In this document: positions 8,640 to 32,438 of the stretch, in pieces
Layout: each line of letters starts with the position of its first letter
Position numbering within the stretch: position 1 is the first letter of the stretch
Assembly: GCA_016932035.1 (NCBI GenBank)
Contig: JAFGDR010000022.1
Location: 1,226-65,225 of the forward strand
Length of the DNA stretch: 64,000 nucleotides
Direction: 5' to 3'
From: Candidatus Cloacimonadota bacterium
GTDB taxonomy: Bacteria; Cloacimonadota; Cloacimonadia; JGIOTU-2
Position numbers and translations under genes: made by a program
The notes under the pieces: generated by a model
What the model saw: only the letters and a program-made list of their open reading frames with translations
What the model was told of the DNA's origin: nothing
Databases searched by the model: none

Positions 8640-9080
8640 ATGCGGCTTCTTGTTCAGCGCGTGAAACGTTCATCAGTATCGGTTGATAACAAACTTGTTT
8701 CCGAAATTGGAACAGGGCTTCTTATCTTCCTGGGAATCGGGCATAAAGACACGAAAGAACAGGTGGAATACCTTGCAAAAAAAGCAATCAATTTGCGCAT
8801 ATTTGAGGATGACGAGGGAAAGATGAACCTCAGTGTCAAGGATATTGGAGGAGAGATTCTCCTTATTTCACAGTTTACACTGTATGCAGATATGAATAAA
8901 GGAAACCGTCCAAGTTTTTCTGAACCGGCTTCTCCCGATAAAGCCGAAGCACTATACGAATATTTTGGAAAGTGTCTTAATGAATTAGGCGTTCCAACAA
9001 AACTTGGTAAATTCGGTGCGCTCATGCAAATCGATCTGCTCAATTTCGGTCCTGCTACGTTTTGGCTGGAGAGGGAATAG
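8640..9080 (+). CDS. dtd: D-aminoacyl-tRNA deacylase
   Basis: 'MRLLVQRV...' N-terminus and a 146-aa length typical of Dtd. GGAGG RBS at 8631-8635. The listed ORF start at 8583 is an N-terminal over-extension. Confidence 0.85.
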   Translation: MRLLVQRVKRSSVSVDNKLVSEIGTGLLIFLGIGHKDTKEQVEYLAKKAINLRIFEDDEGKMNLSVKDIGGEILLISQFTLYADMNKGNRPSFSEPASPDKAEALYEYFGKCLNELGVPTKLGKFGALMQIDLLNFGPATFWLERE

Positions 9081-9147
9081 ATCTTACGGTAACTCGTCAC
9101 CCAAAATCTTGACACAGTTTCCATAGTACGGAAATTTCCCCCTCAAT

Positions 9148-15470: not shown

Positions 15471-15486
15471 CATGAAGGGAGAAGCT

Positions 15487-18400
15487 ATGAAAAGGTACTT
15501 ATTCGCTTTTACATTCGTTGTGCTTTTTCTTCTAGTAGCCGTACTCCATGCAGGTACGACAGGTAAACTTGCTGGCCGGGTTACTGATATTGATTCTGGA
15601 GAGCCCGTTATCGGCGCCAATGTAATCATTATTGAGAAACAAATAGGTGCAACCACAGACGACAAAGGTCGTTATATGGTAATTAACATTCCTCCTGGCA
15701 CCTATGAAGTCAAAGCTTTCAGAATGGGTTATCAAGCAGTCACCATTACAGATGTAAAGATCAATCTTGACTTGACCACAACCTTAAACTTCGAACTCAA
15801 AAGCACTGATACACAAATTGAAGGTATCACTGTTAGAGCAGAACAGAAGCTTGTTGAGAGAGATATTACAGGTTCGGAAAAAATCATTAGTTCCGAAGAT
15901 ATCGAACAAATGCCGGTTCAATCAATTCAAGAGATCGTTGCTGTTACTGCTGGTGCTGTAGGTTCTGGAGAAAATCTTCACATTAGAGGAGGTCGTGCTA
16001 ATGAGGTTGTGTACACTGTTGACGGTATGTCGGTTTCCAATCCGGTTGATAACGGATTTGGCATGCAGCTCGATATGGACGCTGTTGGAGACATGTCCGT
16101 TCAGACAGGTGGTTTTACTGCTGAGTTCGGTAACGCACAATCAGCCATTATTAACCTTGTGACAAAATCAGGTGGTCCTGAATATTCAGGAAAGCTCGAA
16201 ATGAGTTCCGACCACATCTTTGATGAAGGAAGCAATGAAGACCAGGTCAAATTTGCATTTGGTGGGCCGATCATTCCTTCCGGCTCTCAACATCAAAGAG
16301 ATAAGTTCACATTCTATCTCAACACTACTGGTGCATGGACAGACGGAAGGTACAAAGATTACTATGCTCTTGAAGAAACCAACCCTCTGTCTAATCCTCT
16401 TGGGCAACTTTCTTATTTCGGATTCGGTGATTCATTATATTATTTTAACGAGATCAATTCAATCACAGAAGGAAGAGATAAAATTTGGTTGTTTGATGTA
16501 GGTGACAGGTATGTTAACAGCTATCAAGCTAACTTTAAAACAAAGTTCCAGGTTAGTCCAACTGTCAAACTTACAGCAGCAGTTAGAGGTGATAGGGAAA
16601 CAAATCTTCCTTTCAATTATCTTAACCGATTGTCTCTTCGCTATATGAACCACTGGACAACAGAACATAATCAACTTGCACTCACCTGGGATCAAACGAT
16701 ATCTCCAAAAATGTTCTATACTGTCCGCGCAAGCAGGTTCGAGACAAATATTGATTTGAATTCCGGTGTTGATAGAGGTTGGTATTTCACCGCTCAAAAT
16801 GTTGATTGGAACAATCCGACATGGACTGAAGATCCGACTTCCAATAACTTTGGCGTTCATATTCCCGGGCAGCAGGAAGATCAGATTTTAGAATATTACG
16901 ACCAGTTTAATGATGAACAACCAGTGCCGCTGTTCACAAATCCGGGAACACACGCGGGGAATTTCTGGAAAGACCAGACAATCACCTATTCTTTGAGAAG
17001 TGATTTCACTTACCAGATAAACGAAATACATCAAGCTAAAACCGGTATTGAGATCAAATTCAACGAAATTTATAAAGACCGTCTTAATAATCCCTGGGAC
17101 ATTGATGACGTTACAAGACTTCCTAATTATCTAAAAACAGTAACAAAAGTTGATACAAATGTTACTCCCTATGATCAACTAAATATGGTTGCATATGGCG
17201 AAGATATTTACTGGAAGAATGATTTTATCGACGCAATCAAGTTTGCTGGCGGAAATATTGACGGCTATAAAGCCTTTCCCTGGCAGGGCGCATACTATCT
17301 CCAAGATAAGATGGAGTGGGAAGGTATGATCGTTAATGCCGGTATGCGTTTCGACTTCTGGTATCTTGGAAACAAATACCAGATTAAAAGTGATACAACT
17401 GGTAAATATATTGATGCAGAATGGGACAAGGTTACATACATTGTAGACGATGGCAGCGGTGGATTTGAGACCAGAACTGAAGATGTTAAAAAATTCCAAA
17501 TCATGGTTAGTCCCCGTTTAGGTGTATCACATCCTATTACTGATAAAGATGTGCTTCACTTTGCATATAACTACCAAAGTCAGCTTCCTCCAATGCAGTA
17601 TGTGTTCACCAGCTCAACAGAGCGCGCAGGAGAGGTGGGAGCTCAAGTTGGTAATCCTAACCTGAAGCCCGAAACAACTATCACATATGAGGTTGGTGTC
17701 GAGCATCAGATGGGTGAAGATTACCTTCTTGATGTGACTATTTTCTACAAGAATATCTATAATCTTGTTAGTATTCTTGATAATGACTACTCTCTCCTTC
17801 CGGATAGTATTGCACAAGCCGGCAGACAATACTGGCTTTATATTTCGCAGGACTATGGCAGTGCACGTGGTGTAGAACTTACCCTGAAAAAACGTTTTAG
17901 TAATTTCTGGGGCTTCACACTTGGATACACATATTCCTGGGCAAACGGACGTAACTCCGGTGCCGTTGAAGCAAGAGACAACCTGAGAGAATTTCCTCTT
18001 GATTGGGACATCAGACATAATGCTTCACTGAATTTTGATTTCAGAATTCCCGAAGACGAAGAGTTCTATCTCTTTGGTATCAAGATGCCTGATAAATTCT
18101 ATACAAGCTTGCTCTGGAGAATTCAATCAGGTGCTCCCTATACTCCTTTAACACCTGATCCTGATAGTAATGTCCAACTTGAAACAAATTCCGATAGACT
18201 TCCTTGGACAAATAGTGCAGACCTGAGAGTGAGTAAAGCATTCAACCTTTTTGGTGATACTAAATTCACTATCTTCTGCAATATTTCAAATTTATTTAAT
18301 ACCCTTAATATTAACTACGTTGATACAAAAACCGGTGAAACACCTGATAAAGGCACCCTTACCTATTGGGACACCTATGATTTAAATCATGACGGCAAGA

Positions 18401-18519
18401 TCGAACGAGAAGATGGTGAAGACGTTACAGGCGCTGCCATTTATCTTGAAGGACTTTCCAATCCCAATATCTATTCAATAGGTCGCAGGATTTCCCTTGG
18501 TGTAAGATTTGAATGGTAA
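15487..18519 (+). CDS. TonB-dependent outer-membrane receptor with an N-terminal carboxypeptidase-regulatory-like (CarbD) domain
   Basis: CarbD-like 'GRVTDIDSGEPVIGANVII...GTYEVKAFRMGYQ', a plug domain, a long beta-barrel, and a C-terminal '...VRFEW'. GGGAGA RBS ahead of ATG 15487. The listed ORF start at 15472 is a likely over-extension. Confidence 0.8.
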   Translation: MKRYLFAFTFVVLFLLVAVLHAGTTGKLAGRVTDIDSGEPVIGANVIIIEKQIGATTDDKGRYMVINIPPGTYEVKAFRMGYQAVTITDVKINLDLTTTLNFELKSTDTQIEGITVRAEQKLVERDITGSEKIISSEDIEQMPVQSIQEIVAVTAGAVGSGENLHIRGGRANEVVYTVDGMSVSNPVDNGFGMQLDMDAVGDMSVQTGGFTAEFGNAQSAIINLVTKSGGPEYSGKLEMSSDHIFDEGSNEDQVKFAFGGPIIPSGSQHQRDKFTFYLNTTGAWTDGRYKDYYALEETNPLSNPLGQLSYFGFGDSLYYFNEINSITEGRDKIWLFDVGDRYVNSYQANFKTKFQVSPTVKLTAAVRGDRETNLPFNYLNRLSLRYMNHWTTEHNQLALTWDQTISPKMFYTVRASRFETNIDLNSGVDRGWYFTAQNVDWNNPTWTEDPTSNNFGVHIPGQQEDQILEYYDQFNDEQPVPLFTNPGTHAGNFWKDQTITYSLRSDFTYQINEIHQAKTGIEIKFNEIYKDRLNNPWDIDDVTRLPNYLKTVTKVDTNVTPYDQLNMVAYGEDIYWKNDFIDAIKFAGGNIDGYKAFPWQGAYYLQDKMEWEGMIVNAGMRFDFWYLGNKYQIKSDTTGKYIDAEWDKVTYIVDDGSGGFETRTEDVKKFQIMVSPRLGVSHPITDKDVLHFAYNYQSQLPPMQYVFTSSTERAGEVGAQVGNPNLKPETTITYEVGVEHQMGEDYLLDVTIFYKNIYNLVSILDNDYSLLPDSIAQAGRQYWLYISQDYGSARGVELTLKKRFSNFWGFTLGYTYSWANGRNSGAVEARDNLREFPLDWDIRHNASLNFDFRIPEDEEFYLFGIKMPDKFYTSLLWRIQSGAPYTPLTPDPDSNVQLETNSDRLPWTNSADLRVSKAFNLFGDTKFTIFCNISNLFNTLNINYVDTKTGETPDKGTLTYWDTYDLNHDGKIEREDGEDVTGAAIYLEGLSNPNIYSIGRRISLGVRFEW

Positions 18520-18539: not shown

Positions 18540-19343
18540 GTGTATACCAATAAGAAATTCAGAATTCTACTCTTGGCATTATTGATAACTGGCATGTTTG
18601 TCGGCAACCTTTGTGCGCAGGATGAAATGACAGTTGAAGACACAACAGCAATTACTGAAGAAGAAGTTGTTGTCGTTGAAGAAACAGTCCAAACTGGAGG
18701 CATTGAAGCCTTCGCACGTAAAATTGTCGGTAGCGGCTTAGTTGATCTTTTCATCAAAGGTGGATGGGTCATGTACCCGATGCTCATTCTCGTTATCTGG
18801 GCATTAGCAACTTCCATCTGGAAAATTATTTCCCTTCGTTACGCAAAAATATCTGTTCACGATTTCTTAGAGAAGCTTCTCCCATTAGTTAAAGAAAAGA
18901 AATTCGATGATGCAATAGCACTGTGTGCGAAGACCCGTGGACCTGTTGCCAGCGTTCTACATGCTGGACTGCTCAAAGCAGATAAAGGTTCAGAAGAAGT
19001 TGAAAAAGCTGTTGAACATGCTGCAATTCTTGAAATGTCATTCCTTGAAAAAGGACTTATTGCTTTGGCAACGACCATTAACCTTGCTCCTATGCTTGGA
19101 TTCCTTGGAACGGTTGTTGGTATGATCCAGGCTTTCGAAGCAATCGCTGCTGCTGGTGAAGTTGAACCAACAATTGTAGCAAGCGGTATTTCAGTAGCTT
19201 TGATCACAACAGCATCAGGTTTGGCAGTCGCTATACCTATCCAGTTATTCAACAATTTCTTTGTATCTGTTATTGATGGATTGATCATCGACATGCAGAC
19301 TGGCTCTGAGAAATTGACGGAAGCATTATTAGAAGTCAAATAG
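18540..19343 (+). CDS. exbB: MotA/TolQ/ExbB proton-channel protein with a signal peptide and an acidic N-terminal extension
   Basis: MotA/ExbB TM core ('LAPMLGFLGTVVGMIQAF'). GTG start with an AGGAGG RBS at 18526-18531. Confidence 0.8.
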   Translation: MYTNKKFRILLLALLITGMFVGNLCAQDEMTVEDTTAITEEEVVVVEETVQTGGIEAFARKIVGSGLVDLFIKGGWVMYPMLILVIWALATSIWKIISLRYAKISVHDFLEKLLPLVKEKKFDDAIALCAKTRGPVASVLHAGLLKADKGSEEVEKAVEHAAILEMSFLEKGLIALATTINLAPMLGFLGTVVGMIQAFEAIAAAGEVEPTIVASGISVALITTASGLAVAIPIQLFNNFFVSVIDGLIIDMQTGSEKLTEALLEVK

Positions 19344-19365: not shown

Positions 19366-19779
19366 ATGAATATTATAAAAGCAAAAAAACCGCGTCTCAA
19401 TCCTAAGATTCCGACATCGTCGATGGCTGACGTGGCATTTCTTTTGCTCGTATTCTTCCTTGTTACAACAAAGTTCGATGTGAAAGAAGGGCTCGGTTTA
19501 GTGCTTCCACCTCACTCCGAATCAGGCGGTCAAAAGGTCAAGATCAAGCAGGAAAACCTCACAAAGATCAAAGTTAATAGAAGAGGTGATATCGCTGTTG
19601 ATGACAAAATTGTCACACCTGCTGAACTTGAGCAGATCGTCGCTGATGTAATCGTGGAAAATCCGAAAATGGTCTTTGTGCTGGAAGCAGATCGTCAGGC
19701 ACGGTACGAAATGATGGTTCGTGCTCTTGATAGATTACTCGCTGCCGGTGCTCAAACCGTATCACTATCTACCCGATAA
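19366..19779 (+). CDS. exbD: Biopolymer transport protein ExbD/TolR (copy 1)
   Basis: 'SMADVAFLLLVFFLVTT' ExbD TM signature, 137 aa. Confidence 0.8.
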   Translation: MNIIKAKKPRLNPKIPTSSMADVAFLLLVFFLVTTKFDVKEGLGLVLPPHSESGGQKVKIKQENLTKIKVNRRGDIAVDDKIVTPAELEQIVADVIVENPKMVFVLEADRQARYEMMVRALDRLLAAGAQTVSLSTR

Positions 19780-19787
19780 GAGGTTCT

Positions 19788-20195
19788 ATGGCAAAAATAG
19801 TAAGAAAAACAAAAATCGATTCTGAGATCCCAAATGCTTCAATGTCCGATATTGCTTTCTTACTGCTGATATTCTTTATGGTTTCAACAACCTTCGTGAA
19901 AGAAAAAGGGTTGAAGGTAGACCTTCCCCGCGCTCAAGCCATTCAGAAGATCAACAGACGCAACGCTGCAACTATTTATGTCAGCCGTTCAGGCCTTATC
20001 TCTATCGATGATTTTGCTACTCCAGTTGACCAGATACAGTATGTTATGCAGGCAAAAGTTGCAGAAAATCCTGCAATGATAACTAGCTTTAGAACTGATA
20101 AGGATACTGAATACGGCATCATGGTAGATGTGATGAACGAGCTTAAGAAAGCAAATGCTCTAAGGGTCTCCTTTGAAGCCCGGAAATTTAGGTAA
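19788..20195 (+). CDS. exbD: Biopolymer transport protein ExbD/TolR (copy 2)
   Basis: 'SMSDIAFLLLIFFMVSTTF' ExbD TM signature, 135 aa. Confidence 0.8.
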   Translation: MAKIVRKTKIDSEIPNASMSDIAFLLLIFFMVSTTFVKEKGLKVDLPRAQAIQKINRRNAATIYVSRSGLISIDDFATPVDQIQYVMQAKVAENPAMITSFRTDKDTEYGIMVDVMNELKKANALRVSFEARKFR

Positions 20196-20225: not shown

Positions 20226-20864
20226 ATGCAAAATAAATCTGTTAATACTCAAAATGATTGGAAAGACGTTGCGAGTTCTTTTTATGAGAAATCATTATCA
20301 CTCGCACTTCTTTTGCTGCTCTTCACTTTCATGGTCTTCCCCAAGATCGAAGTGAAACCTTATCAGCATAAGGCAAAAGAAATCCAAACCATTGAGATCC
20401 CACCCGAAGTACGGCAGAAGTTCAAACCTCCGGAAGAAGTAAAACCTATCATACCTCTCACTATTGAAGAGAGTGATATGGGAGATGAAGATGAGGTTGA
20501 AGAAATCGAGACTATCGGTCCGACCACTCTTGATCTCACAAAACCCCCTCCCGTATCTCGTGAAGGTACAACACCGAAATTTGTTGTTCATGAAGAAGAG
20601 CCAATTCCGATGAAAAAGGTTGAACCCGAATATCCCGATTTTGCTAAAAATGCCGGCATCGAAGGTTCTGTAACACTTCGTGCAGAAGTCTTTGAAGATG
20701 GTTCGGTTGGTGCTGTTGAGATTGTTAAAAGTCTTCAGTCTGGTCCTGGTGGTCTCGACGAAGCAGCAATTGAAGCAGTCAAACAATGGAAATTCATACC
20801 TGCAAAAAATCAAGGAAAACCTGTTGCAGTCTGGGTTACCTTTCCGATAACATTCCAGTTATAA
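20226..20864 (+). CDS. tonB: Energy transducer TonB (Pro/Glu-rich linker plus TonB C-terminal domain)
   Basis: N-terminal anchor, a 'PPEVRQKFKPPEEVKP' linker, and a C-terminal 'EGSVTLRAEVFEDGSVGAVEIVKS...AIEAVKQWKFIPA' TonB_C domain. Confidence 0.75.
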   Translation: MQNKSVNTQNDWKDVASSFYEKSLSLALLLLLFTFMVFPKIEVKPYQHKAKEIQTIEIPPEVRQKFKPPEEVKPIIPLTIEESDMGDEDEVEEIETIGPTTLDLTKPPPVSREGTTPKFVVHEEEPIPMKKVEPEYPDFAKNAGIEGSVTLRAEVFEDGSVGAVEIVKSLQSGPGGLDEAAIEAVKQWKFIPAKNQGKPVAVWVTFPITFQL

Positions 20865-20913
20865 AGTAGTACATATGAAAAATAGAATTTTAAAGAAGAA
20901 AGTAGGAGGTAAT

Positions 20914-23900
20914 ATGCGCTCAAAAATTGGTTTCCTGCCTGTTTTTCTGGTAGTGCTCCTCATGCTGATCCTCTCAAGCTCTGTAGTTTGGGCTCGATCG
21001 GTTAATGGTGGCTCCGGCGCAAATAGAAGACTTGATATCTTTCACTATCATGATGTTGGAAACATATGGTTGCGAGTGAGTAACTATGGTTTCTTTGGCT
21101 CTGGAGATGATGTAGTTCCCCAATGGCCCTCCCTGGAATATCCTGGTGGATCCGGTATCGATTATCTATACCAAGGAGCTCTTTGGTTCGGTGCATGCAA
21201 ACAACGAAGAAATGACTTCGGACAAATGTTGTATTGGCAAGATGCGAACCAAGAGACAACCGGGACAGTTAATATGGGCTATGGAAGGGTTATTGATACA
21301 CTCGTTACTGTTGGTTTTGATGGTGATGATGATTATTACGAATTCCTTCCAGCGTATAATCCGTTAGAAGAAAATGTTCTTGGACCTAAGTACGATATCT
21401 ACAACCTGAAAGATGGTGTTATTGAATCATCGATCCGTGACCAGCAAACTGGTGTGGATGATGATGGAGATGGCAAAATCGATGAAGATCCAGCTGGATT
21501 TGCATTTCCCTATCGTAGTACCGTTCCCTCACAATTCAACACTTTTGAATCAGGCATGAATGAATTCAGAGGTGTAGTAGATAGAACACAGTGTTTACCG
21601 GACGAGATCCTCGCAAACATCGACATCTGGTTCCCTCTCGGTTTCCTTGAACTGGGATATGTAGACCCGGATAGCATCTATAACTTTGCTCAAATACAGG
21701 ACGATGATGGAGATCTGCTTCGTGATGAAGATGGCTATCCTATCTCAGAACAGGACTTCCTTGGCTACTATTATGACTATAGTCCCTTTGGAACACCCGG
21801 CGAACGAGTACAGGAAGCACAATCCTATGCTCAAGAACATATTCCTAATAATATCCGTGTCCGCCAGGTAAGTTTTCAGTGGAGTTATGAATATATTAAA
21901 AATCTGGTTTATGTCGAATTCGATATAACCAACATGAATACTGTCGATACACTCTTCGACTGTGCTATGGCAGTGTACATGGACTGTGATGTTGGTCCTC
22001 AATCATGGGGGGCTCAGGCTCGAGCTGGTGACGATATAAGTAGCTATGTTCCTGGAGAAGGCTTTGAGTTTGCCTATACATACGATGCTGATCAGGATGG
22101 AGGTCTCACCACAGGTTACGTAGGTTCTCGTGTGTGTACTCCTGATCCTGAACAATTAGACTTCGCTTGCTGGACATGGGACGTTGGGGATGGTCCAAGT
22201 CATAATGTTTCGAATGCGGATAGAAACGAAAAATACTGGCTGATGACACATAATAAAGACTCATTCAGCACAAAATACACATCGCTCCGTGAAGATCCTG
22301 GCGCTCAATTAAATGATCCATGCGATACAAGATACCTCTTTGCCTTCTATGGTGATATGCAGGGATTTGATGCACCAACGGATTCAAGCTGGAACCTCCT
22401 TCCCGGTGAAACCATGAAAATCGTTATTGCCGTTTTCCCAGGAGACGATGTTGAAGAGCTGAAGAGAACAGCTATATGGTCAAAAGTATTATATGGTGAA
22501 GCTCAAACTCTTACTACAGTTGTTCTACCGGATACCTTCAAACATTATGAAGCACCAGGACCTCCTGACATTCCACATATGACACTCGATCAATCACTAG
22601 ATGGAGATACAATCTTTGTTTATTGGGACAATCGATCAGAATTTACTGTAGATCGAATGACCCTTACAAAAGAATTTGTAGGTTGGCAGGACAGCATTCC
22701 ATTCCTTGATAGTTACATAGGAAAATATGATGAACAGTTAGCCCATTATGGTTATTTTCCCGAAGAATTTGATCCTTGGCATTGGAATGGTCAAACTTAT
22801 AATATAAATGCTACTGTTAATCCGTGGACAGCGTATCGCTTGCGACATGACTTCCAGGGATACTCGCTTTGGAAAGCTGCAAACTCAGGTGAGCAAGATG
22901 CATACATGAGAATGAATCGATGGGATAAAATAGATACTCAACAGGATATGAGAGATTATAATGTATGTATGAATCTTCCTATTGACAGTATGAATGTTTC
23001 TTACGGTGGACAATTGGGAATCAATAACGGAATTCCAATGGACTACATTGTTGGAACAAATCCAACAGAAGATATCATTTATACTACTGACAGCACAGTG
23101 TACTGGACTGACTATTACAGACTCGACTCGCTATATTCTTTCGTGAAAGTTGTTGATGGAAATATGGTATATGGAATTCCTTTGTATAATATTCTTGATA
23201 GTACAGACCAATGCATACAAGATAGTGTTCAAGAATATTCTACCCTCCCAGAGGAAGAAAGACATAGAAAAGAATCCCTTCTCTTCAAGAATCCCCAAAT
23301 GAGCAATGACCTTTATCTGGACCTCTATGACGACAGATTGATACCTCTACCAGAACATTTAGGTCAGGCACATCCTCAAGGTTTGCTTGAATTGAAAAAG
23401 GAGCGTTTATCTCGAAGATATTATATCAGTGAGATACTCTATCCTGAAAAAGGTGTAGAAAACTACTTTGCTGTCACATCGTTTGACAGAGGTATTCCTT
23501 CTCAAAACTTACAAGCTCTTGAGTCAGGTAAAGATGGAAACCGAATAACAATTTTCGGCGGTCCCTCTGCTGCAACGAATCTTGACGATATCTATGTTGT
23601 CCCAAATCCGTATCTTGGACAAAGTAAATTTGATGGACGACGTGATAAGGATGAGAATGGAGACAGAAGTAAACGTATCTGGTTTGTAAATCTCCCTGAA
23701 AAATGTACAATAAGAATATATACTCTTGCCGGTGATCTCGTTGATGAGATTGAACATGACGGCGTATCAACCGTTGATGTTATTAATCCCAGTAAAGCAA
23801 CACATATAGGTATTGCTCCAGGTGGTATCGAACCTTGGGATCTTCTCTCTAAACACGATCAGATCATTGCAAGCGGTGTGTATCTTTATTCTGTTGAAGA

Positions 23901-23949
23901 CCATGCGACTGGCGATGTTAAAGTCGATAAACTTGTTTTAATTAAATAA
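20914..23949 (+). CDS. Large secreted protein (about 1010 aa) with tandem DxDxDG calcium-binding-loop-like motifs and a T9SS C-terminal sorting domain. Function unknown.
   Basis: Signal peptide. 'DDDGDGKIDEDP' and 'DDDGDLLRDEDGYP' EF-hand-like loops. The C-terminal about 85 aa ('IRIYTLAGDLVDEI...SGVYLYSVE...KLVLIK') match the Por_Secre_tail pattern. GGAGG RBS ahead of ATG 20914. The listed ORF start at 20875 is a likely over-extension. No terminator separates it from tonB. Confidence 0.55.
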   Translation: MRSKIGFLPVFLVVLLMLILSSSVVWARSVNGGSGANRRLDIFHYHDVGNIWLRVSNYGFFGSGDDVVPQWPSLEYPGGSGIDYLYQGALWFGACKQRRNDFGQMLYWQDANQETTGTVNMGYGRVIDTLVTVGFDGDDDYYEFLPAYNPLEENVLGPKYDIYNLKDGVIESSIRDQQTGVDDDGDGKIDEDPAGFAFPYRSTVPSQFNTFESGMNEFRGVVDRTQCLPDEILANIDIWFPLGFLELGYVDPDSIYNFAQIQDDDGDLLRDEDGYPISEQDFLGYYYDYSPFGTPGERVQEAQSYAQEHIPNNIRVRQVSFQWSYEYIKNLVYVEFDITNMNTVDTLFDCAMAVYMDCDVGPQSWGAQARAGDDISSYVPGEGFEFAYTYDADQDGGLTTGYVGSRVCTPDPEQLDFACWTWDVGDGPSHNVSNADRNEKYWLMTHNKDSFSTKYTSLREDPGAQLNDPCDTRYLFAFYGDMQGFDAPTDSSWNLLPGETMKIVIAVFPGDDVEELKRTAIWSKVLYGEAQTLTTVVLPDTFKHYEAPGPPDIPHMTLDQSLDGDTIFVYWDNRSEFTVDRMTLTKEFVGWQDSIPFLDSYIGKYDEQLAHYGYFPEEFDPWHWNGQTYNINATVNPWTAYRLRHDFQGYSLWKAANSGEQDAYMRMNRWDKIDTQQDMRDYNVCMNLPIDSMNVSYGGQLGINNGIPMDYIVGTNPTEDIIYTTDSTVYWTDYYRLDSLYSFVKVVDGNMVYGIPLYNILDSTDQCIQDSVQEYSTLPEEERHRKESLLFKNPQMSNDLYLDLYDDRLIPLPEHLGQAHPQGLLELKKERLSRRYYISEILYPEKGVENYFAVTSFDRGIPSQNLQALESGKDGNRITIFGGPSAATNLDDIYVVPNPYLGQSKFDGRRDKDENGDRSKRIWFVNLPEKCTIRIYTLAGDLVDEIEHDGVSTVDVINPSKATHIGIAPGGIEPWDLLSKHDQIIASGVYLYSVEDHATGDVKVDKLVLIK

Positions 23950-23960
23950 AGGTGGTTAAC

Positions 23961-24998
23961 ATGAAAAGGATAATTTTATTACTATTGGCCCTTTTACTGA
24001 TACCAACCTTGGTTCAAGCTGATATTTTTGCAAAAGTTGGTACTGCCGGTTTACAGTTCTTGAAAATCGGTGTTGATGCTCGTGCTATTGGTATGGCAGA
24101 AGCTTATACTGCATATACAAAGGGAGCTTCATCCACGTATTGGAACGTTGCCGGACTTGCCTATTCTACCGATACAGAGTTATTTTTAAATCATACGCGA
24201 TATGTTGCTGACATTAACTATGATTATCTCACCATTGCCTTCCCAACCTCTTTTGGTGTTTTCGGAATTAACGGTTCACTATTGTATATGGATTGGATGG
24301 ATGTTACTACTGCTGATGAATTTGGTCCAAACGGCGAACAATTTACCTGTAGCGATATGATGGCTGGATTATCTTATGCAACAATGCTGACTGATAAATT
24401 TTCAGTTGGTTTATCATTTAAATATCTAAGGGAAAACCTTGATGAATATGACGTCAACGGCTGGGGTATAGACCTCGGATCACTTTATAATACCGGTTGG
24501 AAAGATCTAACGATTGGAATGAGTTTGAGGAATTTTGGTCCTGAAGTGAAATACACCCTCGATAATGATGGAGATGGGCTTATTGATGAAGACCCATATG
24601 ATCTTCTCGACAATGATGCTGACGGACTTGTTGATGAAGATAGAGAAGAACTCTCTTTCGCACTTCCAATGAACTTCTCTCTTGGTATTGCAATGAGCAT
24701 TTTAGAATCGAACATGCAGTCTCTCGATGCTGTTTTCCAGATTGACAACTGTGTCGATCGTCTTGAAACCTACAATGCTGGACTTGAATACAGAATCGGA
24801 ACCTTCTTCCTGCGTGGTGGATATCAATTTAATCTTGATTGTCAAGCTGCTTCTTTCGGATTGGGCTGGAAACTTGCTACTTCCTTTGCTGTTATGGATA
24901 TTGATGCTGCATACACTCCTTTTGGTAAACTAGAAGAAAAGATGGATGGACAATTCCTGACCGGACCTATACGTCTATCCCTGAAAATGAAATTTTAA
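23961..24998 (+). CDS. FadL-family / PorV-like 14-strand outer-membrane protein with an acidic DxDxDG loop insertion. Candidate T9SS cargo shuttle.
   Basis: Signal peptide, then 'GTAGLQFLKIGVDARAIGMAEAYTA...NVAGLAY', which resembles the FadL N-terminal motif. A 'DNDGDGLIDEDPYDLLDNDADGLVDED' insert. The start lies 9 nt after the upstream stop. Confidence 0.5.
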   Translation: MKRIILLLLALLLIPTLVQADIFAKVGTAGLQFLKIGVDARAIGMAEAYTAYTKGASSTYWNVAGLAYSTDTELFLNHTRYVADINYDYLTIAFPTSFGVFGINGSLLYMDWMDVTTADEFGPNGEQFTCSDMMAGLSYATMLTDKFSVGLSFKYLRENLDEYDVNGWGIDLGSLYNTGWKDLTIGMSLRNFGPEVKYTLDNDGDGLIDEDPYDLLDNDADGLVDEDREELSFALPMNFSLGIAMSILESNMQSLDAVFQIDNCVDRLETYNAGLEYRIGTFFLRGGYQFNLDCQAASFGLGWKLATSFAVMDIDAAYTPFGKLEEKMDGQFLTGPIRLSLKMKF

Positions 24999-25034: not shown

Positions 25035-27203
25035 ATGAAAAAAATTGCTATGTTTAGCGTGATGCTACTCGTGCTCGCTGGAATGGTTTGGGCAAATGAT
25101 ATACCTCAGCCAATCAACAATAATTCATATGTTCCGGCAGAAGCTCCAAAGCATCTCAAAGTTGCCTCTCCAACCCGTAATGACGGCAACTTCGATGTTC
25201 CCGACTGGGAATTCATCCAACAACCAACAACTCTTGCGGGTTTTACTAACTACTATGACTATATGCCAGGTAGTTACTGTGGTCGCCCTTTAATGACTCA
25301 ACCCGATGCATTCGGTGGAGTCTACTTCGTATTCCACGGTCGTCCAAATACAACCGATAATAGAAGAGTTTATTGGGCGTATGTGCATGCTGCTGGTAAT
25401 ATTGAATATGCAACAATTACCACTTCTGACACATGGCAGGGTTATCCTGGAATGACCATGCATCCTGCTTCTGGCGATCCTATTGTCTCATGGCATGATA
25501 TTATGGACTCGGCCACCCCTGAAGACACGAACACTCGTGTAACTTATGATGACTACGGTCTTCTGTTTATACCCGGCTTCTGGAAAACACCTGTAACATT
25601 TGACCAGCCAATTCCTTACGTTGACGAATATATCTGGCCTTATATGTACATTGGAATGGCTCCTGATTATGCTACTACCGGCAACTACCGTGTGTATCAG
25701 ATCAGTGGTCAGAATCCTGATGGTGAAATCGAACACGACATCCTTCGCTGGATCGATGTTCCTGAAGACACCTATGTATATGGCGATCTTGAAATTATGC
25801 TGAACAAGAACAACTGGTCTCCTTACGTAAACATTTCACGTGACTGGTCAGATCCCGCAGCCGGCATCGACTGCCGTCCATATCCCTCATTTGCCGTAGA
25901 TCCATTCACTGCTGGACACGTGGCAATATTCGGTTACGCCGGATACACAAACGGTCTTGTTGGTGGTGAAGTTGTACCTCAGGGCTTCTACGTTTGGGAC
26001 TCTTATGATGGTGGAGCAACATGGGATTATGCAAACTTCCATTCATATCAAACAGATGTTGGTATGTACAATGAATATGTCATGTGGGCTGTTGACAATG
26101 TTCCTGGTTTTGTAGATGACAGCAGTATTCCTTATCCTGAACTTCATGTCTGGATCGGTTGGCCCGGTAACCAGCATTCAACCCACAGAACAGCAACTTT
26201 TGATAGTGAAGGAAATCTTCACCTTCCAGAACAATTCTGGATAAGTAACGTTGATGGTGCAGCAGGAAATGCATCGTACTGGCCATATTATCTCTTCCAA
26301 TATCAAGTTGAAGTTGTTTACAAAACTGATGGCACCTGGGAAATCCGCGAAGTTCCGAATCTACCTGGTGTCGATGCTATGAGCGGACACACAGTACCAT
26401 GGGAAATCGAACCCGTTAGTGGTGATACTCTCATTTACCCTTGGCTTACCATGCCATTTACCGATATTACAACCGTCGGTTTCCATGAAAATACTCAACG
26501 AAATGCTGCTAACTTTGAAAACAGCTGGATGGTTCAGGTATGGGATGACGGCACAAAAACACTCATGGCTGAAAATGCTATTCCTGGATATGACGCATAT
26601 GCAACTCATCCAATTCTTTATGTATCTGCAACCAATAACAACGGTGAAAACTGGAGTGCTCCAATTGAGCTTTCCGATATTTACAGTACTGCATTCCCCG
26701 GTTTTGCAGACATGATCACCATGTATCCATATATCAATCCAACGATCAAAGATCTTGGTGATGGCTGGGGACAGATCGACATGTACTTCTTTGATGATAA
26801 TGATTATGGTAGCTCGATTCAGCAGATGGGTCCGGCAACTGGTGGTGAAATGGTCTATTGTTCATTCAAGATCGATTTTGCAAATATGATCGTATCAACA
26901 GATCCTTCACAGTCACAACCGGAAGCAACTATGACACTTCGCAATGTTCCGAATCCTTTCTTCTCACATACTCAAATCCAGTTCTCGGCTAATGTTGGTG
27001 TTGAAAATGCAAAAGTCACGATCTATAATACTAAAGGTCAGCTTGTAAAATCTATTGATGCAATTGCCGATTCTCATACTGCAGGACATGCAATGTGGGA
27101 TGGTACCGATGAGTTTGGTAAAGATGTAGCAAATGGAATCTACTTCTATAAAGTAGAAACCAATGGTGCTACAATTGCCAAAAAGATGATGCTCAATAGA
27201 TAA
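25035..27203 (+). CDS. Secreted BNR/Asp-box beta-propeller protein with a T9SS C-terminal sorting domain (paralog 1 of 3)
   Basis: Signal peptide. Asp-box motifs 'SYDGGATWD' and 'TNNNGENWS'. C-terminal 'NPFFSHTQIQF...VTIYNTKGQLV...NGIYFYKV...KKMMLNR'. GGAGG RBS. Confidence 0.6.
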   Translation: MKKIAMFSVMLLVLAGMVWANDIPQPINNNSYVPAEAPKHLKVASPTRNDGNFDVPDWEFIQQPTTLAGFTNYYDYMPGSYCGRPLMTQPDAFGGVYFVFHGRPNTTDNRRVYWAYVHAAGNIEYATITTSDTWQGYPGMTMHPASGDPIVSWHDIMDSATPEDTNTRVTYDDYGLLFIPGFWKTPVTFDQPIPYVDEYIWPYMYIGMAPDYATTGNYRVYQISGQNPDGEIEHDILRWIDVPEDTYVYGDLEIMLNKNNWSPYVNISRDWSDPAAGIDCRPYPSFAVDPFTAGHVAIFGYAGYTNGLVGGEVVPQGFYVWDSYDGGATWDYANFHSYQTDVGMYNEYVMWAVDNVPGFVDDSSIPYPELHVWIGWPGNQHSTHRTATFDSEGNLHLPEQFWISNVDGAAGNASYWPYYLFQYQVEVVYKTDGTWEIREVPNLPGVDAMSGHTVPWEIEPVSGDTLIYPWLTMPFTDITTVGFHENTQRNAANFENSWMVQVWDDGTKTLMAENAIPGYDAYATHPILYVSATNNNGENWSAPIELSDIYSTAFPGFADMITMYPYINPTIKDLGDGWGQIDMYFFDDNDYGSSIQQMGPATGGEMVYCSFKIDFANMIVSTDPSQSQPEATMTLRNVPNPFFSHTQIQFSANVGVENAKVTIYNTKGQLVKSIDAIADSHTAGHAMWDGTDEFGKDVANGIYFYKVETNGATIAKKMMLNR

Positions 27204-27415: not shown

Positions 27416-29497
27416 ATGAAAAAGATTGGAGTAATTTTACTCTTTTGCTTTCTTCTATCTATAAGCGTACTTCATGCAGAATTTATGAACCCTGACGGTT
27501 CAGAACGAACTGCTATTACAGACATCAACGTCGGCAAATTAGTTCCTATAACACAAGTCGATCATCGAGAAAACACACCGGTTCCCGACTACAGCTTCTA
27601 TACAAATCCAACTACGATCATGACGTCCTACTATGACTATATGCCCGGCTCATATGAAGGATATCCATTACAGAAGCAGACCGATAATGGAGATGGATTG
27701 TATATTACATGGTTTGGCACAGCAACAACGACCGCAACACGTCGTCAATATTACGCATATGCTGATGCATTTGGAAGTATTGGTGGCAACTGGGGAACAA
27801 TTTCAACATACGATCGGACCCAGGGATACGGAAGTGTAGCTGTTCATCCCGCTACTGGTGACTGTTTTGCAACCTGGCATGAAAATCCATCAGGATCAAA
27901 TTATGGTTGTGTAATCTGTTATGATGACTATTCCCTACTTAGCATTCCGGGTTTTTGGTCTTCAGTTACTTTTATACCTTCTCCACTTCCTGATGAATAT
28001 ATCTGGCCCTATGTCTATGTTGGTCCTTCTCCAAATGGAGATGGTTGGATTCGGTTGTATCATATCTCAAAAAACTACACTCACGATGCATGGGATCATC
28101 CGTGTGAAGATCCTCGAATCATGTATATTGATGTTGAGAATACTCTTTTTGCTGATATGACTGTTATCCTGAACCTTAACAATTGGACTACAGTAAATCC
28201 AATGTATTATTGGAGAGCAAAGTCATGCCGTCCTCAATCACAAGCGTTTGCAATTGATCACAGTACTCCCGGACACGTTGCTATCGTAGGATACTGTTCA
28301 TGGCTTGAAGGTGATCTCGGTGATATGCCTGTTGATCCAGGTTTCTATATTTTTGAATCTTTCGACTATGGAACAACATGGGATACGGCAAATCTGCATG
28401 GAGATGGTCCGCAAGACTTTATTTATGCGGTTGAGAATATTCCTCATTTCACAGATAATAGCGGAAACCTTATCGACAGTATTAAAGTAGATTCATACGG
28501 ATGGCATGATACTGCCCAGTTTGATGCAAATGGTGTTGCTCATCTTTGTTACCTGCAACAGTATGGATATACCGATGATGCAGGAGACAGCTATTATTTT
28601 AATCATTTCCTCCCGCAAGCAGAAGCAGTTTGGGATGGTATAGCGTGGGATTGGCATAACGTGCCAGCCTTCCCGGGTATCGATCCCTGGACCGGAAGAG
28701 ATGTTCCTTGGGAAATAGTTGGTAATGATACACTTCTCTACGTCTCTGTTTCTTATAATAAATATCCAGAAGATTCTGAAATATTTCACCAGAACACCCA
28801 GAGAAATGCCATCAATAAAGAAAACAATTGGATGGTACAATTCTGGACTGACGGAACGTATGTTCAACTTGCAGAAGACGGTGACCCAGCATATGCAGCA
28901 TATGCACAACACCCGATCCTCTATCTCTCAGTATCTTCAAACAATGGTGATACATGGTCGGAACCTATTGAACTTTCGGATATTTATAGTACTCAATTTG
29001 ACTTCTCGGGACAGATAACAGTCTATCAAAATTTGTACAACTACATTGAAGCTATTAATGACTCGGTTGGTCGAGTTCATATCATGTACTATGATGATAA
29101 CTCATTCGGCTGCTATATCCGTTCAGGAGCTGGGCAGGATGTTGGCGGTCAAATCACCTATTGTTCAGTTGATATTGTATTCCCACCGTTTTCAAATGAT
29201 CCTCAGCCCTCTGTTCCTGTTACCTCACTTTCAAACTATCCCAATCCATTCTTTGCGTCAACTACCATTAATTTCACGGCAAAGAAAGCATATCAAAATG
29301 CGGAGATCAGTGTGTATAATACAAGGGGACAGCTGATCAACACTTTGCATGTGAATCACGGTGACAATCCTTCAGAAGGATACGCTGTATGGAATGGTAA
29401 AGATGCAGCTGGTAAGAATGTTGCTAACGGTATTTATTTCTATAAGGTAGATGTCGATGGCTCATCTCTTACCCAAAAAATGATGTTAACAAGATAA
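27416..29497 (+). CDS. Secreted BNR/Asp-box beta-propeller protein with a T9SS C-terminal sorting domain (paralog 2 of 3)
   Basis: Signal peptide. Asp-boxes 'SFDYGTTWD' and 'SSNNGDTWS'. C-terminal 'NPFFASTTINF...ISVYNTRGQLI...NGIYFYKVDVDG...KMMLTR'. GGAGG RBS. Confidence 0.6.
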   Translation: MKKIGVILLFCFLLSISVLHAEFMNPDGSERTAITDINVGKLVPITQVDHRENTPVPDYSFYTNPTTIMTSYYDYMPGSYEGYPLQKQTDNGDGLYITWFGTATTTATRRQYYAYADAFGSIGGNWGTISTYDRTQGYGSVAVHPATGDCFATWHENPSGSNYGCVICYDDYSLLSIPGFWSSVTFIPSPLPDEYIWPYVYVGPSPNGDGWIRLYHISKNYTHDAWDHPCEDPRIMYIDVENTLFADMTVILNLNNWTTVNPMYYWRAKSCRPQSQAFAIDHSTPGHVAIVGYCSWLEGDLGDMPVDPGFYIFESFDYGTTWDTANLHGDGPQDFIYAVENIPHFTDNSGNLIDSIKVDSYGWHDTAQFDANGVAHLCYLQQYGYTDDAGDSYYFNHFLPQAEAVWDGIAWDWHNVPAFPGIDPWTGRDVPWEIVGNDTLLYVSVSYNKYPEDSEIFHQNTQRNAINKENNWMVQFWTDGTYVQLAEDGDPAYAAYAQHPILYLSVSSNNGDTWSEPIELSDIYSTQFDFSGQITVYQNLYNYIEAINDSVGRVHIMYYDDNSFGCYIRSGAGQDVGGQITYCSVDIVFPPFSNDPQPSVPVTSLSNYPNPFFASTTINFTAKKAYQNAEISVYNTRGQLINTLHVNHGDNPSEGYAVWNGKDAAGKNVANGIYFYKVDVDGSSLTQKMMLTR

Positions 29498-29626: not shown

Positions 29627-31708
29627 ATGAAAACGATTATCTTTACAATTATTCTATTAAGCGTTTTAATCTTTCCAATTCAGGCAAAAACTCTCAATCC
29701 AAATCCCAATGAAGCAATTCCTTTTTCTGAATATCCCGATCTAAAAATTGTTCCTTTTAATACTACTTCAAATAGAGAGAACTATCCGGTTCCGGACTTC
29801 AGTTTTAAAACAGTTCCAACAACGATCATGACATCATATTATGACTATATGCCTGGATCGTATGAAGGATTTCCCTATGGGCTGCAGTCAACAATTGGTA
29901 GTGGATATTATCTGACGTGGTTCGGCACTGCTTCTACAACGGCAAACCGTAGGCAGTATTACGCTTATATTAATAGTTCAGGAGTTAATGAATCATGGGG
30001 CACCATATCGAACTATGATATCTGGCAAGGTTACGGAAACTGCACGGTTCATCCCGCAACCGGTGATTGCTTTGCAACCTGGCATGAAGATGGAGATGCA
30101 ACAGGCTACTTTGGCACAACATTTGTTTATGATGATTATGCTTTATTAGGCATACCGGGATTCTGGTCTACGGTCACATATCTTCCACCAAATCTTCCTG
30201 ATGAATATAATTGGCCATACTTCTATGTTGGTCCTTCACCAATGGGAACAGATTACCTTCGTTTGTACCAGGTGTCTAAAAATTTTACGAATGATGCTTG
30301 GGAGAATCCCTGTGAAGATATGCGCATCATGTATATCGATCTGGAAAACACACCTACTGCCGATCTTTCACCTATGTTGAATATGGCTAATTGGACAACT
30401 CAATGGCCAATGTATTACTGGAGATACAAATCATGTCGTCCCTATTCCCAGGCATTTGCAATCGATTATGAAAATCCCGGTCGAGTTGCGATCATCGGAT
30501 ATGCGGTATGGCTTGAAGGTGATCTTGGTGACATGCCGGTCGATGAAGGATTTTTCGTATGGGAATCCAACGACTATGGAACGACCTGGGATGGAAGCAA
30601 TATTCACGGTGATGGTCCAGGCGAAATAATATATGTTGTGGAAAATATTCCCCAGTTTGAGGACAATAGCGGCAATATTGTAGATGAAGTAGAAGTTCAA
30701 TTGGCTGGATGTCATAACACTGCTGTTTATGACAATGACGGCTCTCTCCATCTAACCTTTTTGCAGCAATATGGTTTTACAGATGATGCCGGTGATTTCT
30801 ACTACTATAATCATTTCCTTCCCCAGGCAGAAGCTGTCTGGACTGGAACTGAGTGGGAATATCATGAAGTACCTGGTATGCCCGGTATTGACCCCTGGTC
30901 TGGGCACACTGTTCCTTGGGAAATTGTCGGTAATGACACGATCCTTTATACTACGGTCGGTTTCAGCAAATATACGGGCACCTCAAATATTTTCCACGAA
31001 AACAATCAGCGAAATACCGTGAACCTTGATAACAACTGGATGGTGCAGCTCTGGTCAGATGGAACATATGTTCAGCTGGCTGAGGATGGTGATCCGGCAT
31101 ATCAAGCTTATGCAGAACACCCAATCCTCTACATTTCTGTATCCTCAGACAATGGTCAAACCTGGTCAGATGTCATCGAATTAACTGACATATATAGCAC
31201 ATTGTACAACTTCTCAAATGAGATAACCGTCTATCCTAACCTTAGTAATCATATTGTTGATATGGGTAATAACTATGGACTTGTTTATCTATATTACTAT
31301 GATGACAATTCTTTTGGCTCATTTGCACAAAGTGGGCAAGGTCAGAATACCGGTGGTCAACTCAACTATTGTGAAGTGCAAATTCTGTTCCCGGATTCTA
31401 TATCGATAGATCCAGCTCATTATAATCCGATCTCATTAGTTTCCAATAATCCCAATCCTTTCTTCGAAACGACCAGGATTAATTTCACGACCAAGAAAAC
31501 ATATCAAGAAGCTGCAATCAAGATCTATAACCCTAAAGGACAACTCATTAACACCCTAGAAGTGAACCATGGTGGTAATCCATTTGAAGGATTTGGCATT
31601 TGGAATGGGAAGGATCTGAAAGGTAAAGATGTTACAAATGGGATCTACCTTTATAGGGTGGAAGTAGATGGATCTTCCTATGTAAACAAGATGTTACTTG
31701 CTCGATAA
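29627..31708 (+). CDS. Secreted BNR/Asp-box beta-propeller protein with a T9SS C-terminal sorting domain (paralog 3 of 3)
   Basis: Signal peptide. Asp-boxes 'SNDYGTTWD' and 'SSDNGQTWS'. C-terminal 'NPFFETTRINF...IKIYNPKGQLI...NGIYLYRVEVDG...KMLLAR'. High identity to paralog 2. Confidence 0.6.
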   Translation: MKTIIFTIILLSVLIFPIQAKTLNPNPNEAIPFSEYPDLKIVPFNTTSNRENYPVPDFSFKTVPTTIMTSYYDYMPGSYEGFPYGLQSTIGSGYYLTWFGTASTTANRRQYYAYINSSGVNESWGTISNYDIWQGYGNCTVHPATGDCFATWHEDGDATGYFGTTFVYDDYALLGIPGFWSTVTYLPPNLPDEYNWPYFYVGPSPMGTDYLRLYQVSKNFTNDAWENPCEDMRIMYIDLENTPTADLSPMLNMANWTTQWPMYYWRYKSCRPYSQAFAIDYENPGRVAIIGYAVWLEGDLGDMPVDEGFFVWESNDYGTTWDGSNIHGDGPGEIIYVVENIPQFEDNSGNIVDEVEVQLAGCHNTAVYDNDGSLHLTFLQQYGFTDDAGDFYYYNHFLPQAEAVWTGTEWEYHEVPGMPGIDPWSGHTVPWEIVGNDTILYTTVGFSKYTGTSNIFHENNQRNTVNLDNNWMVQLWSDGTYVQLAEDGDPAYQAYAEHPILYISVSSDNGQTWSDVIELTDIYSTLYNFSNEITVYPNLSNHIVDMGNNYGLVYLYYYDDNSFGSFAQSGQGQNTGGQLNYCEVQILFPDSISIDPAHYNPISLVSNNPNPFFETTRINFTTKKTYQEAAIKIYNPKGQLINTLEVNHGGNPFEGFGIWNGKDLKGKDVTNGIYLYRVEVDGSSYVNKMLLAR

Positions 31709-31830: not shown

Positions 31831-32433
31831 ATGTTAAAAAAAAGTGTTTTATTATTGGCACTTGTTGCACTTATTGTGTCATGCGGAGGACCTACCAAGC
31901 AGGTTTCCCGCGTGGGGGTCGATGAGACTATTGACCTTAGTGGCCGCTGGAACGACTCAGATGCTCGTATGGTTTCTGAAAACATCGTTGAGGATGTTCT
32001 CGATGGTGCATGGCTAATGAACTGGCTGGATGAATATGATGAGAAACCAATTGTTATCGTTGGAACAATCGGAAACAAAACAAGCGAACATATCAATACA
32101 GAGACATTTTCTACTGATATCGAAAGGGAACTTGTCAATTCTGGAGAAGTTCGTTTTGTTGCTGCCAAAGAACAGCGTGATGAAATTCGCGATGAACGTC
32201 TTGATCAGCAAAGTCAGGCAACAGAAGAAACAGCTAAAAGACTTGCCCAGGAACTCGGCGCTGATTTTATGCTTCAGGGAACGCTTTCATCTATCGAAGA
32301 TTCAGTTGATGGTAAAAAAGTAGTGTATTATCAGGCAGATATGAACCTGGTAAATCTCGAAACGAGTGAGATCGTTTGGATGGGATCAAAAAAGATCAAA
32401 AAATTTATGGAACAATCAAAACTTAAATGGTAA
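31831..32433 (+). CDS. LpoB-like lipoprotein (COG3417 penicillin-binding-protein activator LpoB / TolB-N-like fold family)
   Basis: Lipobox 'IVSCGG'. Colinear with E. coli LpoB: 'KPIVIVGTIGNKT', 'RELVNSGEVRFV', 'ELGADFMLQGTLSS', 'ADMNLVNLETSEIVWMGSK'. AAGGAGG RBS. Confidence 0.6.
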   Translation: MLKKSVLLLALVALIVSCGGPTKQVSRVGVDETIDLSGRWNDSDARMVSENIVEDVLDGAWLMNWLDEYDEKPIVIVGTIGNKTSEHINTETFSTDIERELVNSGEVRFVAAKEQRDEIRDERLDQQSQATEETAKRLAQELGADFMLQGTLSSIEDSVDGKKVVYYQADMNLVNLETSEIVWMGSKKIKKFMEQSKLKW

Positions 32434-32438
32434 TCATA

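Follow-up and report, generated by a model that had tools for sequence, protein, structure and literature searches.

The 64,000-nucleotide (nt) stretch of DNA analyzed here, referred to below as the window, originates from a Candidatus Cloacimonadota bacterium (assembly GCA_016932035.1, contig JAFGDR010000022.1, positions 1,226 to 65,225 of the forward strand). Judging by the sources of its homologues, its nearest relative is Candidatus Celaenobacter. It carries two adjacent genes whose products share an Asp-rich loop motif of the calcium-binding type. The first gene (20875-23949, + strand) encodes an exported protein of 1024 amino acids (aa) that belongs to no curated family and is designated BIG. 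The second (23961-24998, + strand) encodes a barrel of the PorV/PorQ family (NF033709, PF19572), designated PorVL.

BIG contains the motif DDDGDGKIDED at residues 195-205 (21457-21489, + strand), located within the peptide DDDGDGKIDEDP (nt 21457-21492 of the window, in the open reading frame, ORF, 20875-23949), and a degenerate copy, DDDGDLLRDED, at residues 276-286 (21700-21732, + strand), located within the peptide DDDGDLLRDEDGYP, which was found from nt 21700. In the PorVL ORF, the peptide DNDGDGLIDEDPYDLLDNDADGLVDED (24561-24641) spans a pair of copies, DNDGDGLIDED (24561-24593, + strand) and DNDADGLVDED (24609-24641, + strand), the second placed 16 residues from the first. Six-frame translation of the window yielded three matches to the strict pattern D-x-[DN]-x-D-G-x-[ILVM]-D-E-D, all of them within BIG and PorVL. 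About 5e-6 matches per window would be expected by chance from composition, and the pattern appeared in none of the shuffled versions of BIG or PorVL (0/20000 each). The presence of a common loop motif in both neighbours, reported in an earlier note on this DNA, was therefore confirmed, with the strict pattern limited to these two genes in the window. The copies in BIG had also been described as tandem, but they are 81 residues apart and the second lacks the Gly of the motif. In most BIG orthologues this Gly is kept, motif 2 having the form D-D-D-x-D-G-L-x-D-E-D.

The likely start of PorVL is the ATG at 23961, with the Shine-Dalgarno sequence AGGTGG (23950-23955) upstream. The ORF finder had chosen the GTG at 23952, and PorVL residues are numbered here from this codon (348-aa ORF). 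Since the ATG lies 11 nt beyond the stop codon of BIG (23947-23949), the two genes do not overlap. Of the translational coupling suggested earlier, what stands is that the genes are adjacent and probably co-transcribed. In one related locus (L001), the stop-to-stop ORFs of BIG and PorVL do overlap.

Conservation of the motifs

Analysis of the best 120 PorVL homologues (52-89% identity) revealed two copies, exactly 16 residues apart, in 113 of them and a single copy in the other 7. Among the best 120 BIG homologues (50-86% identity), 115 contain two copies at a distance of 73-88 residues, and motif 1 is present in 120/120. The invariant residues of BIG motif 1 (69 sequences) are D195, D196, D197, D199, D203, E204 and D205. 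Those of PorVL are D206, D208, E213 and D214 in motif 1, and D220, N221, D222, D224, D228, E229 and D230 in motif 2. Orthologues of both proteins throughout the Cloacimonadota thus retain the motifs down to about 50% identity, which answers the question, raised in the earlier note, of whether the inserts are kept elsewhere.

As both motif sets are conserved across the Cloacimonadota, a recent local event is excluded as their source. The local motif transfer that had been considered fails, if it is taken to be recent, on this phylum-wide conservation and also at the DNA level: the four copies are alike solely at codons forced by the peptide sequence, and their flanks show no similarity. A recent DNA transfer between copies was rejected on the same grounds, the identity being restricted to the forced codons.

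Structure of PorVL and position of loop L4

PorVL scored 186.3 bits against the PorV/PorQ family model NF033709 (cutoff 90), residues 31-347 being aligned with positions 1-325 of the 326-position profile, and 39.3 bits against PF19572 (cutoff 27). Its scores were below the equivalog cutoffs for PorV (NF033710; 76.1 versus 250 bits), PorQ (NF033711; 99.6 versus 220 bits) and PorV2 (61.6 versus 325 bits). In the AlphaFold2 (AF2) model (predicted local distance difference test score, pLDDT, 81.5), an N-terminal plug-like region is accompanied by 14 strands. The grouping of the model's secondary structure into these strands is our own count: residues 76-83, 88-99, 102-119, 126-145, 150-162, 167-180 and 187-193 (strands 1-7), and 241-253, 256-266, 273-282, 285-293, 300-309, 314-321 and 340-347 (strands 8-14). 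The top Foldseek matches were the PorV structures of Flavobacterium johnsoniae (F. johnsoniae), 8gl6_F (E 7e-14) and 6h3i_F, with FadL and TodX next. The profile score and the best fold match therefore agree with the earlier description of this protein as a PorV/FadL-like outer-membrane protein.

According to the model's secondary structure, strands 7 and 8 are joined by a 47-residue loop, L4 (residues 194-240; 24531-24671, + strand), which contains both motifs. The C-terminal strand of outer-membrane barrels ends in the periplasm, and counting strands back from it puts residues 194-240 outside the cell. L4 is on the same side as the 18-residue connection 322-339, and the turns of 2-6 residues are all on the opposite side. 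Strand parity on the predicted structure thus supports the surface-loop insert proposed earlier and places it away from the periplasmic turns; from this model we infer that the PorVL motif pair faces outside.

PorVL resembles F. johnsoniae PorV (PDB 6H3I, 8GL6), a type IX secretion system (T9SS) substrate carrier, in giving its best profile and fold match, and in having a 14-strand barrel and an N-terminal plug region. It differs in being encoded in a transporter/TonB operon, in missing the equivalog cutoffs and in its L4 region, which is unalignable to the F. johnsoniae protein. The extracellular loops of F. johnsoniae PorV are disordered until wrapped round the C-terminal domain of the substrate and constitute its working surface (PMC10994853). 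The literature searched contained no mention of PorV having calcium loops.

Domain organization of BIG

BIG begins with a signal peptide and a strongly conserved N-terminal segment, continues with a beta-rich central core and ends in a divergent, T9SS-like C-terminal domain. No Pfam match was obtained, and a sequence-profile search of the PDB with the BIG family gave no match at E up to 1. The genomes of GTDB contain 274 BIG relatives, the best 80 of which all belong to the Cloacimonadota; in the deposited annotations these relatives are "hypothetical". Short homologues of 584-630 aa, designated X, occur in other phyla. Blastp alignments with X cover only BIG residues 26-107, 327-605 and 858-1024. 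The intervening residues 108-326 are absent from X, as are the motifs. Both BIG motifs lie within this expansion (residues about 108-326; 21196-21852, + strand). The segment MDCDV is common to BIG and X, its Cys being replaced by Trp in one X homologue.

The AF2 model of BIG (pLDDT 76.5) gave partial Foldseek matches to a beta-supersandwich resembling the N-terminal domains of GH94/GH116, and to the C-terminal parts of PorZ (5m11) and PorU (6za2), with 160 and 189 columns, respectively. The C-terminal region (about residues 905-1024; 23587-23946, + strand) is a putative T9SS-type domain into which a basic segment is inserted, and it shows the strongest conservation with the X proteins (33-37% identity). 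Against the PorZ model NF052228 this tail matched profile positions 667-756 only (20.4 bits, cutoff 260, E 1.4e-4). BIG had no match to TIGR04183 / PF18962, and two short homologues X scored 18.2 and 17.8 bits (cutoff 23). By blastp, the tail of the BIG family matches those of the type A proteins encoded nearby.

Both PorU and PorZ belong to the T9SS, retain their C-terminal domains and act in an attachment complex together with PorV and PorQ (PMC11285876). The pairs PorU-PorV and PorZ-PorQ of Porphyromonas gingivalis (P. gingivalis) resemble the pair studied here in combining a PorV-family barrel with a large exported protein; PorU and PorZ end in T9SS C-terminal domains, which the BIG tail resembles. 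They differ in that BIG has no C25 peptidase domain and no match to the PorU or PorZ models beyond the tail. The identification of BIG as PorU itself was rejected (no Peptidase_C25 Pfam match, no match to NF033707 at E up to 0.01, fold match confined to the tail), as was its identification as PorZ, for which the model match was sub-threshold and restricted to profile positions 667-756 and the fold match again to the tail.

Invariant residues of the BIG family are most densely clustered at residues about 50-107 (window 21022-21195), a segment that is also among the best conserved in the short X homologues of other phyla. Its pLDDT is nevertheless 33-45, and it may fold only against a partner.

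Distribution of the motif in other loci and phyla

The presence of the motifs was compared in 80 Cloacimonadota loci found via BIG and in two more contigs found via PorVL. In 65 Cloacimonadota loci, BIG and PorVL carry two motifs each. Locus L043 encodes a motif-less PorVL (8982-9974) with a shortened L4 (loop DLSDQEPEYDPLGLTVEEMQFQLP) next to a BIG with both motifs, and another motif-less PorVL relative, P0243, resembles it. BIG genes with neither PorVL nor Ton neighbours keep the motifs in L039 (4169-7138), L044 (3681-6683) and L081 (5884-9006).

Genes for proteins with T9SS C-terminal domains flank two of these solitary BIG genes, those in L039 and L081. L039 represents a second BIG copy in an assembly that also carries a full cluster (L042). 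Two BIG loci per assembly were also found in the cases of L006/L007, L018/L020, L023/L083 and L031/L046, which could be paralogues or mixed bins. The contigs of L023 and L083 are labelled "Armatimonadota bacterium" (metagenome-assembled genome CSMAG_2426); their BIG proteins are 53-54% identical to that of the window, and the label is probably a binning error.

PorVL relatives were surveyed more widely by searching, with a profile, 1.84 billion proteins that each represent one cluster at 50% identity. L4 proved to be the hypervariable part of the PorV family, ranging from about 5 to 35 residues, and the motif pattern was matched by 13 of the best 150 family representatives. Outside the Cloacimonadota, the twin motif of PorVL was found in one Latescibacterota protein and in several further groups; a Zixibacteria cluster has a single copy. 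In these non-Cloacimonadota genomes, PorVL is preceded by X and a TonB-dependent transporter of the Oar type. Three such loci, L084 (Latescibacterota), L085 and L088, have no motif in X and two in PorVL. L089 (KSB1) and L090 (Fermentibacteria) contain the same three genes, with no motif in either X or PorVL. Motifs in both proteins, in BIG only, in PorVL only and in neither have each been seen, so that all four combinations occur. This sequence distribution indicates that the PorVL loops are the older set and that the BIG loops arose in the Cloacimonadota-specific expansion. It also argues against the calcium-dependent interaction module suggested in the earlier note, since the BIG/X and PorVL families carry or lack the motif independently.

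The frequency of the signature itself was examined in a census based on the window, about 1 Mb of related Cloacimonadota loci and a scan of metagenome contigs. The metagenome scan with the pattern D-[DN]-D-G-D-G-x-[IVM]-D-E-D gave at least 120 loci, with 125 carrier ORFs among the matches listed. These comprised 36 PorVL, 20 BIG, 4 transporter, 2 C-terminal-domain and 1 SprA proteins, together with 62 members of other families. The sampled "other" carriers included M14 zinc carboxypeptidases, a bacterial thrombospondin type 3 (TSP3) repeat protein, a pilin-like protein and long arrays of Cys-rich repeats. As the shared loop is common in exported proteins and has been gained and lost independently by both families, it does not constitute a private docking code. 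In the M14 zinc carboxypeptidases (L103, L120, L123, L138 and others), one or two copies of the form D-[DN]-D-G-D-G-x-[IV]-D-E-D are inserted in the catalytic domain.

Putative calcium-binding loops and alternative explanations

Three of the four copies in the window conform to the linear rule of Dx[DN]xDG calcium loops (Asp at positions 1, 3, 5 and 9, Gly at 6 and the main-chain oxygen of residue 7), the exception being BIG copy 2; at the level of sequence, this bears out the earlier assignment to a calcium-binding type of pattern. With the loops described by Rigden, Galperin and co-workers (PMC3123361), the copies share the linear pattern with its Gly, the acidic ligand two residues on and the extracellular setting. 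They differ in their invariant D-E-D tail and in that Ca2+ is here a prediction from motif fit. No fewer than 16 unrelated folds are known to contain Dx[DN]xDG loops, which occur mainly in extracellular proteins and for which a convergent origin is favoured; in some families, the loop is short in certain homologues and is longer and carries the motif in others (PMC3123361). L4 of the PorV family fits this pattern, since its length varies from about 5 to 35 residues and few members bear the motif. The contexts of Dx[DN]xDG loops in the literature searched include no FadL/PorV-type barrel with the motif in an extracellular loop.

Profile searches assigned the inserts to none of the EF-hand, TSP3 and dockerin families. 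With the EF-hand models (PF00036, PF13405, PF13202), the best hit had an E-value of 0.48 (10.7 bits versus a cutoff of 25) and covered the loop only, position 12, which is Glu in EF-hands, being Pro, Gly or Arg. The TSP3 models PF02412 and PF18884 gave no match at E up to 10, whether the query was the insert of PorVL, that of BIG or a string of the motif written twice, and dockerin gave none either. TSP3 repeats of thrombospondin and of bacterial proteins are nevertheless similar in consisting of consecutive Asp-rich, calcium-wrapping loops with little secondary structure, and metagenome proteins of the TSP3_bac type share the 11-residue signature with BIG and PorVL. They differ from the inserts analyzed here, which have no cysteines, only two repeats and no profile match.

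On balance, we consider it probable that the four motifs are structural calcium sites of the Dx[DN]xDG type, situated on surface-exposed loops and acquired separately by the two proteins, and that they are not a mutual recognition code. The two loops of PorVL, 16 residues apart, would fill L4. Ca2+ is plentiful outside the cell and, once bound, would stiffen this loop, whose 47 residues otherwise have no secondary structure. By analogy with F. johnsoniae PorV, the metal-stiffened L4 might then contribute to the surface by which a partner's C-terminal domain is held. The loops of BIG would probably stabilize an extra domain, namely the expansion of about 220 residues found only in the Cloacimonadota.

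Several observations weigh against this interpretation. BIG motif 2 of the window has Leu at the position of the Gly. The pLDDT is 50-57 in L4 and 63-72 around the BIG motifs, although low values within L4 are as expected for a metal site modelled without its metal. Calcium binding is predicted from the motif fit, and the stabilizing role is likewise putative. In about 1 Mb around the Cloacimonadota clusters, the D-E-D form is represented by 274 copies, 147 in BIG and 127 in PorVL, and by none of the 67 Dx[DN]xDG loops (0/67) of the transporters and C-terminal-domain proteins; as the form is limited to the pair in these neighbourhoods, there is room for a lineage-specific link between the two proteins. 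Moreover, the invariant D-E-D tail exceeds the minimal ligand set, so that selection on more than one Ca2+ site is possible.

One alternative is a calcium-dependent docking module, in which the matching loops of BIG and PorVL would meet directly, or via bridging Ca2+, and hold the surface protein on the barrel. In its favour, the two genes are adjacent and syntenic throughout the phylum, the loops of both proteins have invariant acidic positions, the D-E-D form is found only in the pair within about 1 Mb of related DNA, and loops of PorV-family proteins are known to bind partner domains (PMC10994853). This docking is nonetheless very unlikely in view of the four presence/absence combinations found in nature: X and PorVL form a partnership in Latescibacterota, KSB1 and Fermentibacteria with no motifs in X, and BIG paralogues keep theirs with no PorVL neighbour. 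Dx[DN]xDG loops, in addition, normally fill the coordination sphere of the ion from one chain (PMC3123361). An ancient transfer, by which the coding sequence of the PorVL loop was copied into the adjacent BIG gene in the ancestor of the Cloacimonadota, would agree with the greater age of the PorVL pair, which is present in Latescibacterota, in the Zixibacteria cluster (one copy) and in other lineages with a motif-less X. It would also agree with the location of the BIG motifs in a lineage-specific insertion and with the extended form D-[DN]-D-x-D-G-x-x-D-E-D common to all four copies. It is rather doubtful, however, because beyond the forced codons there is no similarity, the BIG copies are 81 residues apart, unlike a copied 16-residue tandem, and many unrelated families show the same extended form, convergence being generally favoured for such loops (PMC3123361).

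The lack of any calcium-binding Pfam family above threshold (EF-hand E 0.48; TSP_3 and dockerin none), as well as the D-E-D tail and the REE that follows it, a charge beyond the need of one ion, would be understandable if the acidic loops were simply charged patches. These would bind cationic ligands, lipopolysaccharide-bridging ions or the substrate of the transporter, in place of structural Ca2+. We regard this as quite improbable, given that the spacing D1-D3-D5-G6-x-x-D9 is strictly kept, including a Gly for which a mere patch of charge has no need. The motif alone is ordinary, being a widespread calcium-loop signature, and PorVL would add the extracellular loop of a PorV/FadL barrel to the structural contexts of a motif already noted for arising repeatedly by convergence. 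The gene neighbourhood in which the pair is found is the more interesting lead.

A conserved transporter/BIG/PorVL trio

The first gene of the conserved cluster (15472-18519, + strand) encodes a TonB-dependent transporter with the Pfam domains PF13620 (63.9 bits), PF07715 (40.5 bits) and PF00593 (75.1 bits). A CarboxypepD_reg N-terminal extension, a Plug domain and a TonB_dep_Rec barrel constitute the Oar-type architecture as defined in PMC6434023; the class includes importers, as well as the Oar protein of Myxococcus, which is needed for Ton-dependent secretion. The transporter has its own Dx[DN]xDG loop near the C-terminus (DLNHDGKIERED, window 18379-18396), which is shared by some orthologues and has no D-E-D tail.

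Between the transporter gene and BIG lie genes for an ExbB/MotA-family protein (18540-19343), two copies of ExbD (19366-19779 and 19788-20195) and TonB (20226-20864; PF03544 TonB_C 77.5 bits, TIGR01352), all on the + strand. The orthologues of the ExbB/MotA-family protein in L001 and L003 match PF01618, those of both ExbD copies match PF02472, and the order of these genes is conserved.

The transporter gene keeps its position in 83 related loci as well as in other phyla, and Candidatus Syntrophosphaera thermopropionivorans W5 (L026) is among the carriers of the cluster. An Oar-type transporter gene followed by BIG or X and then by PorVL was found in Cloacimonadota, Latescibacterota, KSB1, Fermentibacteria and further lineages (L084, 5188-11011; L085, 534-6441; L088, 3022-9014; L089, 2426-9032; L090, 59-8978), and in Fermentibacteria this gene order includes ExbB-ExbD-ExbD-TonB, as in the Cloacimonadota. 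No description of the trio was found in the literature searched. In comparison with Oar-type transporters (SusC-like importers and Myxococcus Oar), the architecture of CarboxypepD_reg, Plug and barrel is the same and the cluster adds its own ExbB-ExbD-ExbD-TonB. SusC-like systems differ in that the cluster contains no SusD-like gene and has BIG or X and a PorV-like barrel instead. "Cargo", the term used for BIG in the earlier note, is probably too weak. BIG is better termed a dedicated partner of PorVL, because it is a fixed neighbour across phyla and its T9SS-like tail is closest to PorZ/PorU.

We tentatively propose that the trio, including a transporter with or without its own ExbB-ExbD-ExbD-TonB, may be an undescribed outer-membrane machine common to several phyla. 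Such a machine would have its own PorV-family barrel next to the transporter, and a surface protein exported by the T9SS would be held there. This protein might take a role like that of SusD-like lipoproteins for SusC or, alternatively, export might draw on Ton energy in the manner of Oar; in some lineages, L4 could contribute its calcium loops to the surface on which the protein is held. T9SS biology rests almost entirely on Bacteroidota. In several uncultured phyla, the present trio keeps a PorV-family barrel beside an uncharacterised protein family with a T9SS-like tail and an Oar-type transporter, which often has its own Ton motor. If the trio acts together, it would link T9SS surface display to TonB-dependent transport and give the BIG family, with its relatives in GTDB species genomes, a testable function.

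In three non-Cloacimonadota loci, proteins with a GWxTD domain (PF20094) are encoded a few genes downstream of PorVL (L085, 10563-11963; L087, 5281-8214; L090, 10174-11502).

Other genes of the window

The SprA/Sov T9SS translocon homologue is encoded at 2076-8327 (- strand; TIGR04189, 582.8 bits versus a cutoff of 200; PF14349), and its presence in the window indicates that the genome possesses a T9SS. This protein contains Dx[DN]xDG-like loops, DLDTNGDGKVNGSD and DLNQDGVLDAGED, at window 6483-6506 and 5337-5354 (- strand), respectively, and the single SprA-like ORF of the metagenome scan carries the full D-E-D form.

In most related loci, PorVL is followed by one to three genes for proteins with T9SS type A C-terminal domains. 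In the window these are three paralogues of about 700 aa (25035-27203, 27416-29497 and 29627-31708, all + strand; PF18962 / TIGR04183), which had no Pfam or NCBIfam match except for the T9SS type A tail. Loops such as DLDEDGVVDEFY are present in their orthologues from some related loci.

A gene at 31831-32433 encodes an LpoB-like protein of 200 aa, which barely reached the model of this penicillin-binding protein activator (112.2 bits, cutoff 110.55). The three genes after it (32427-34040, 34049-35077 and 35153-37648), the last of which is on the - strand, matched no family.

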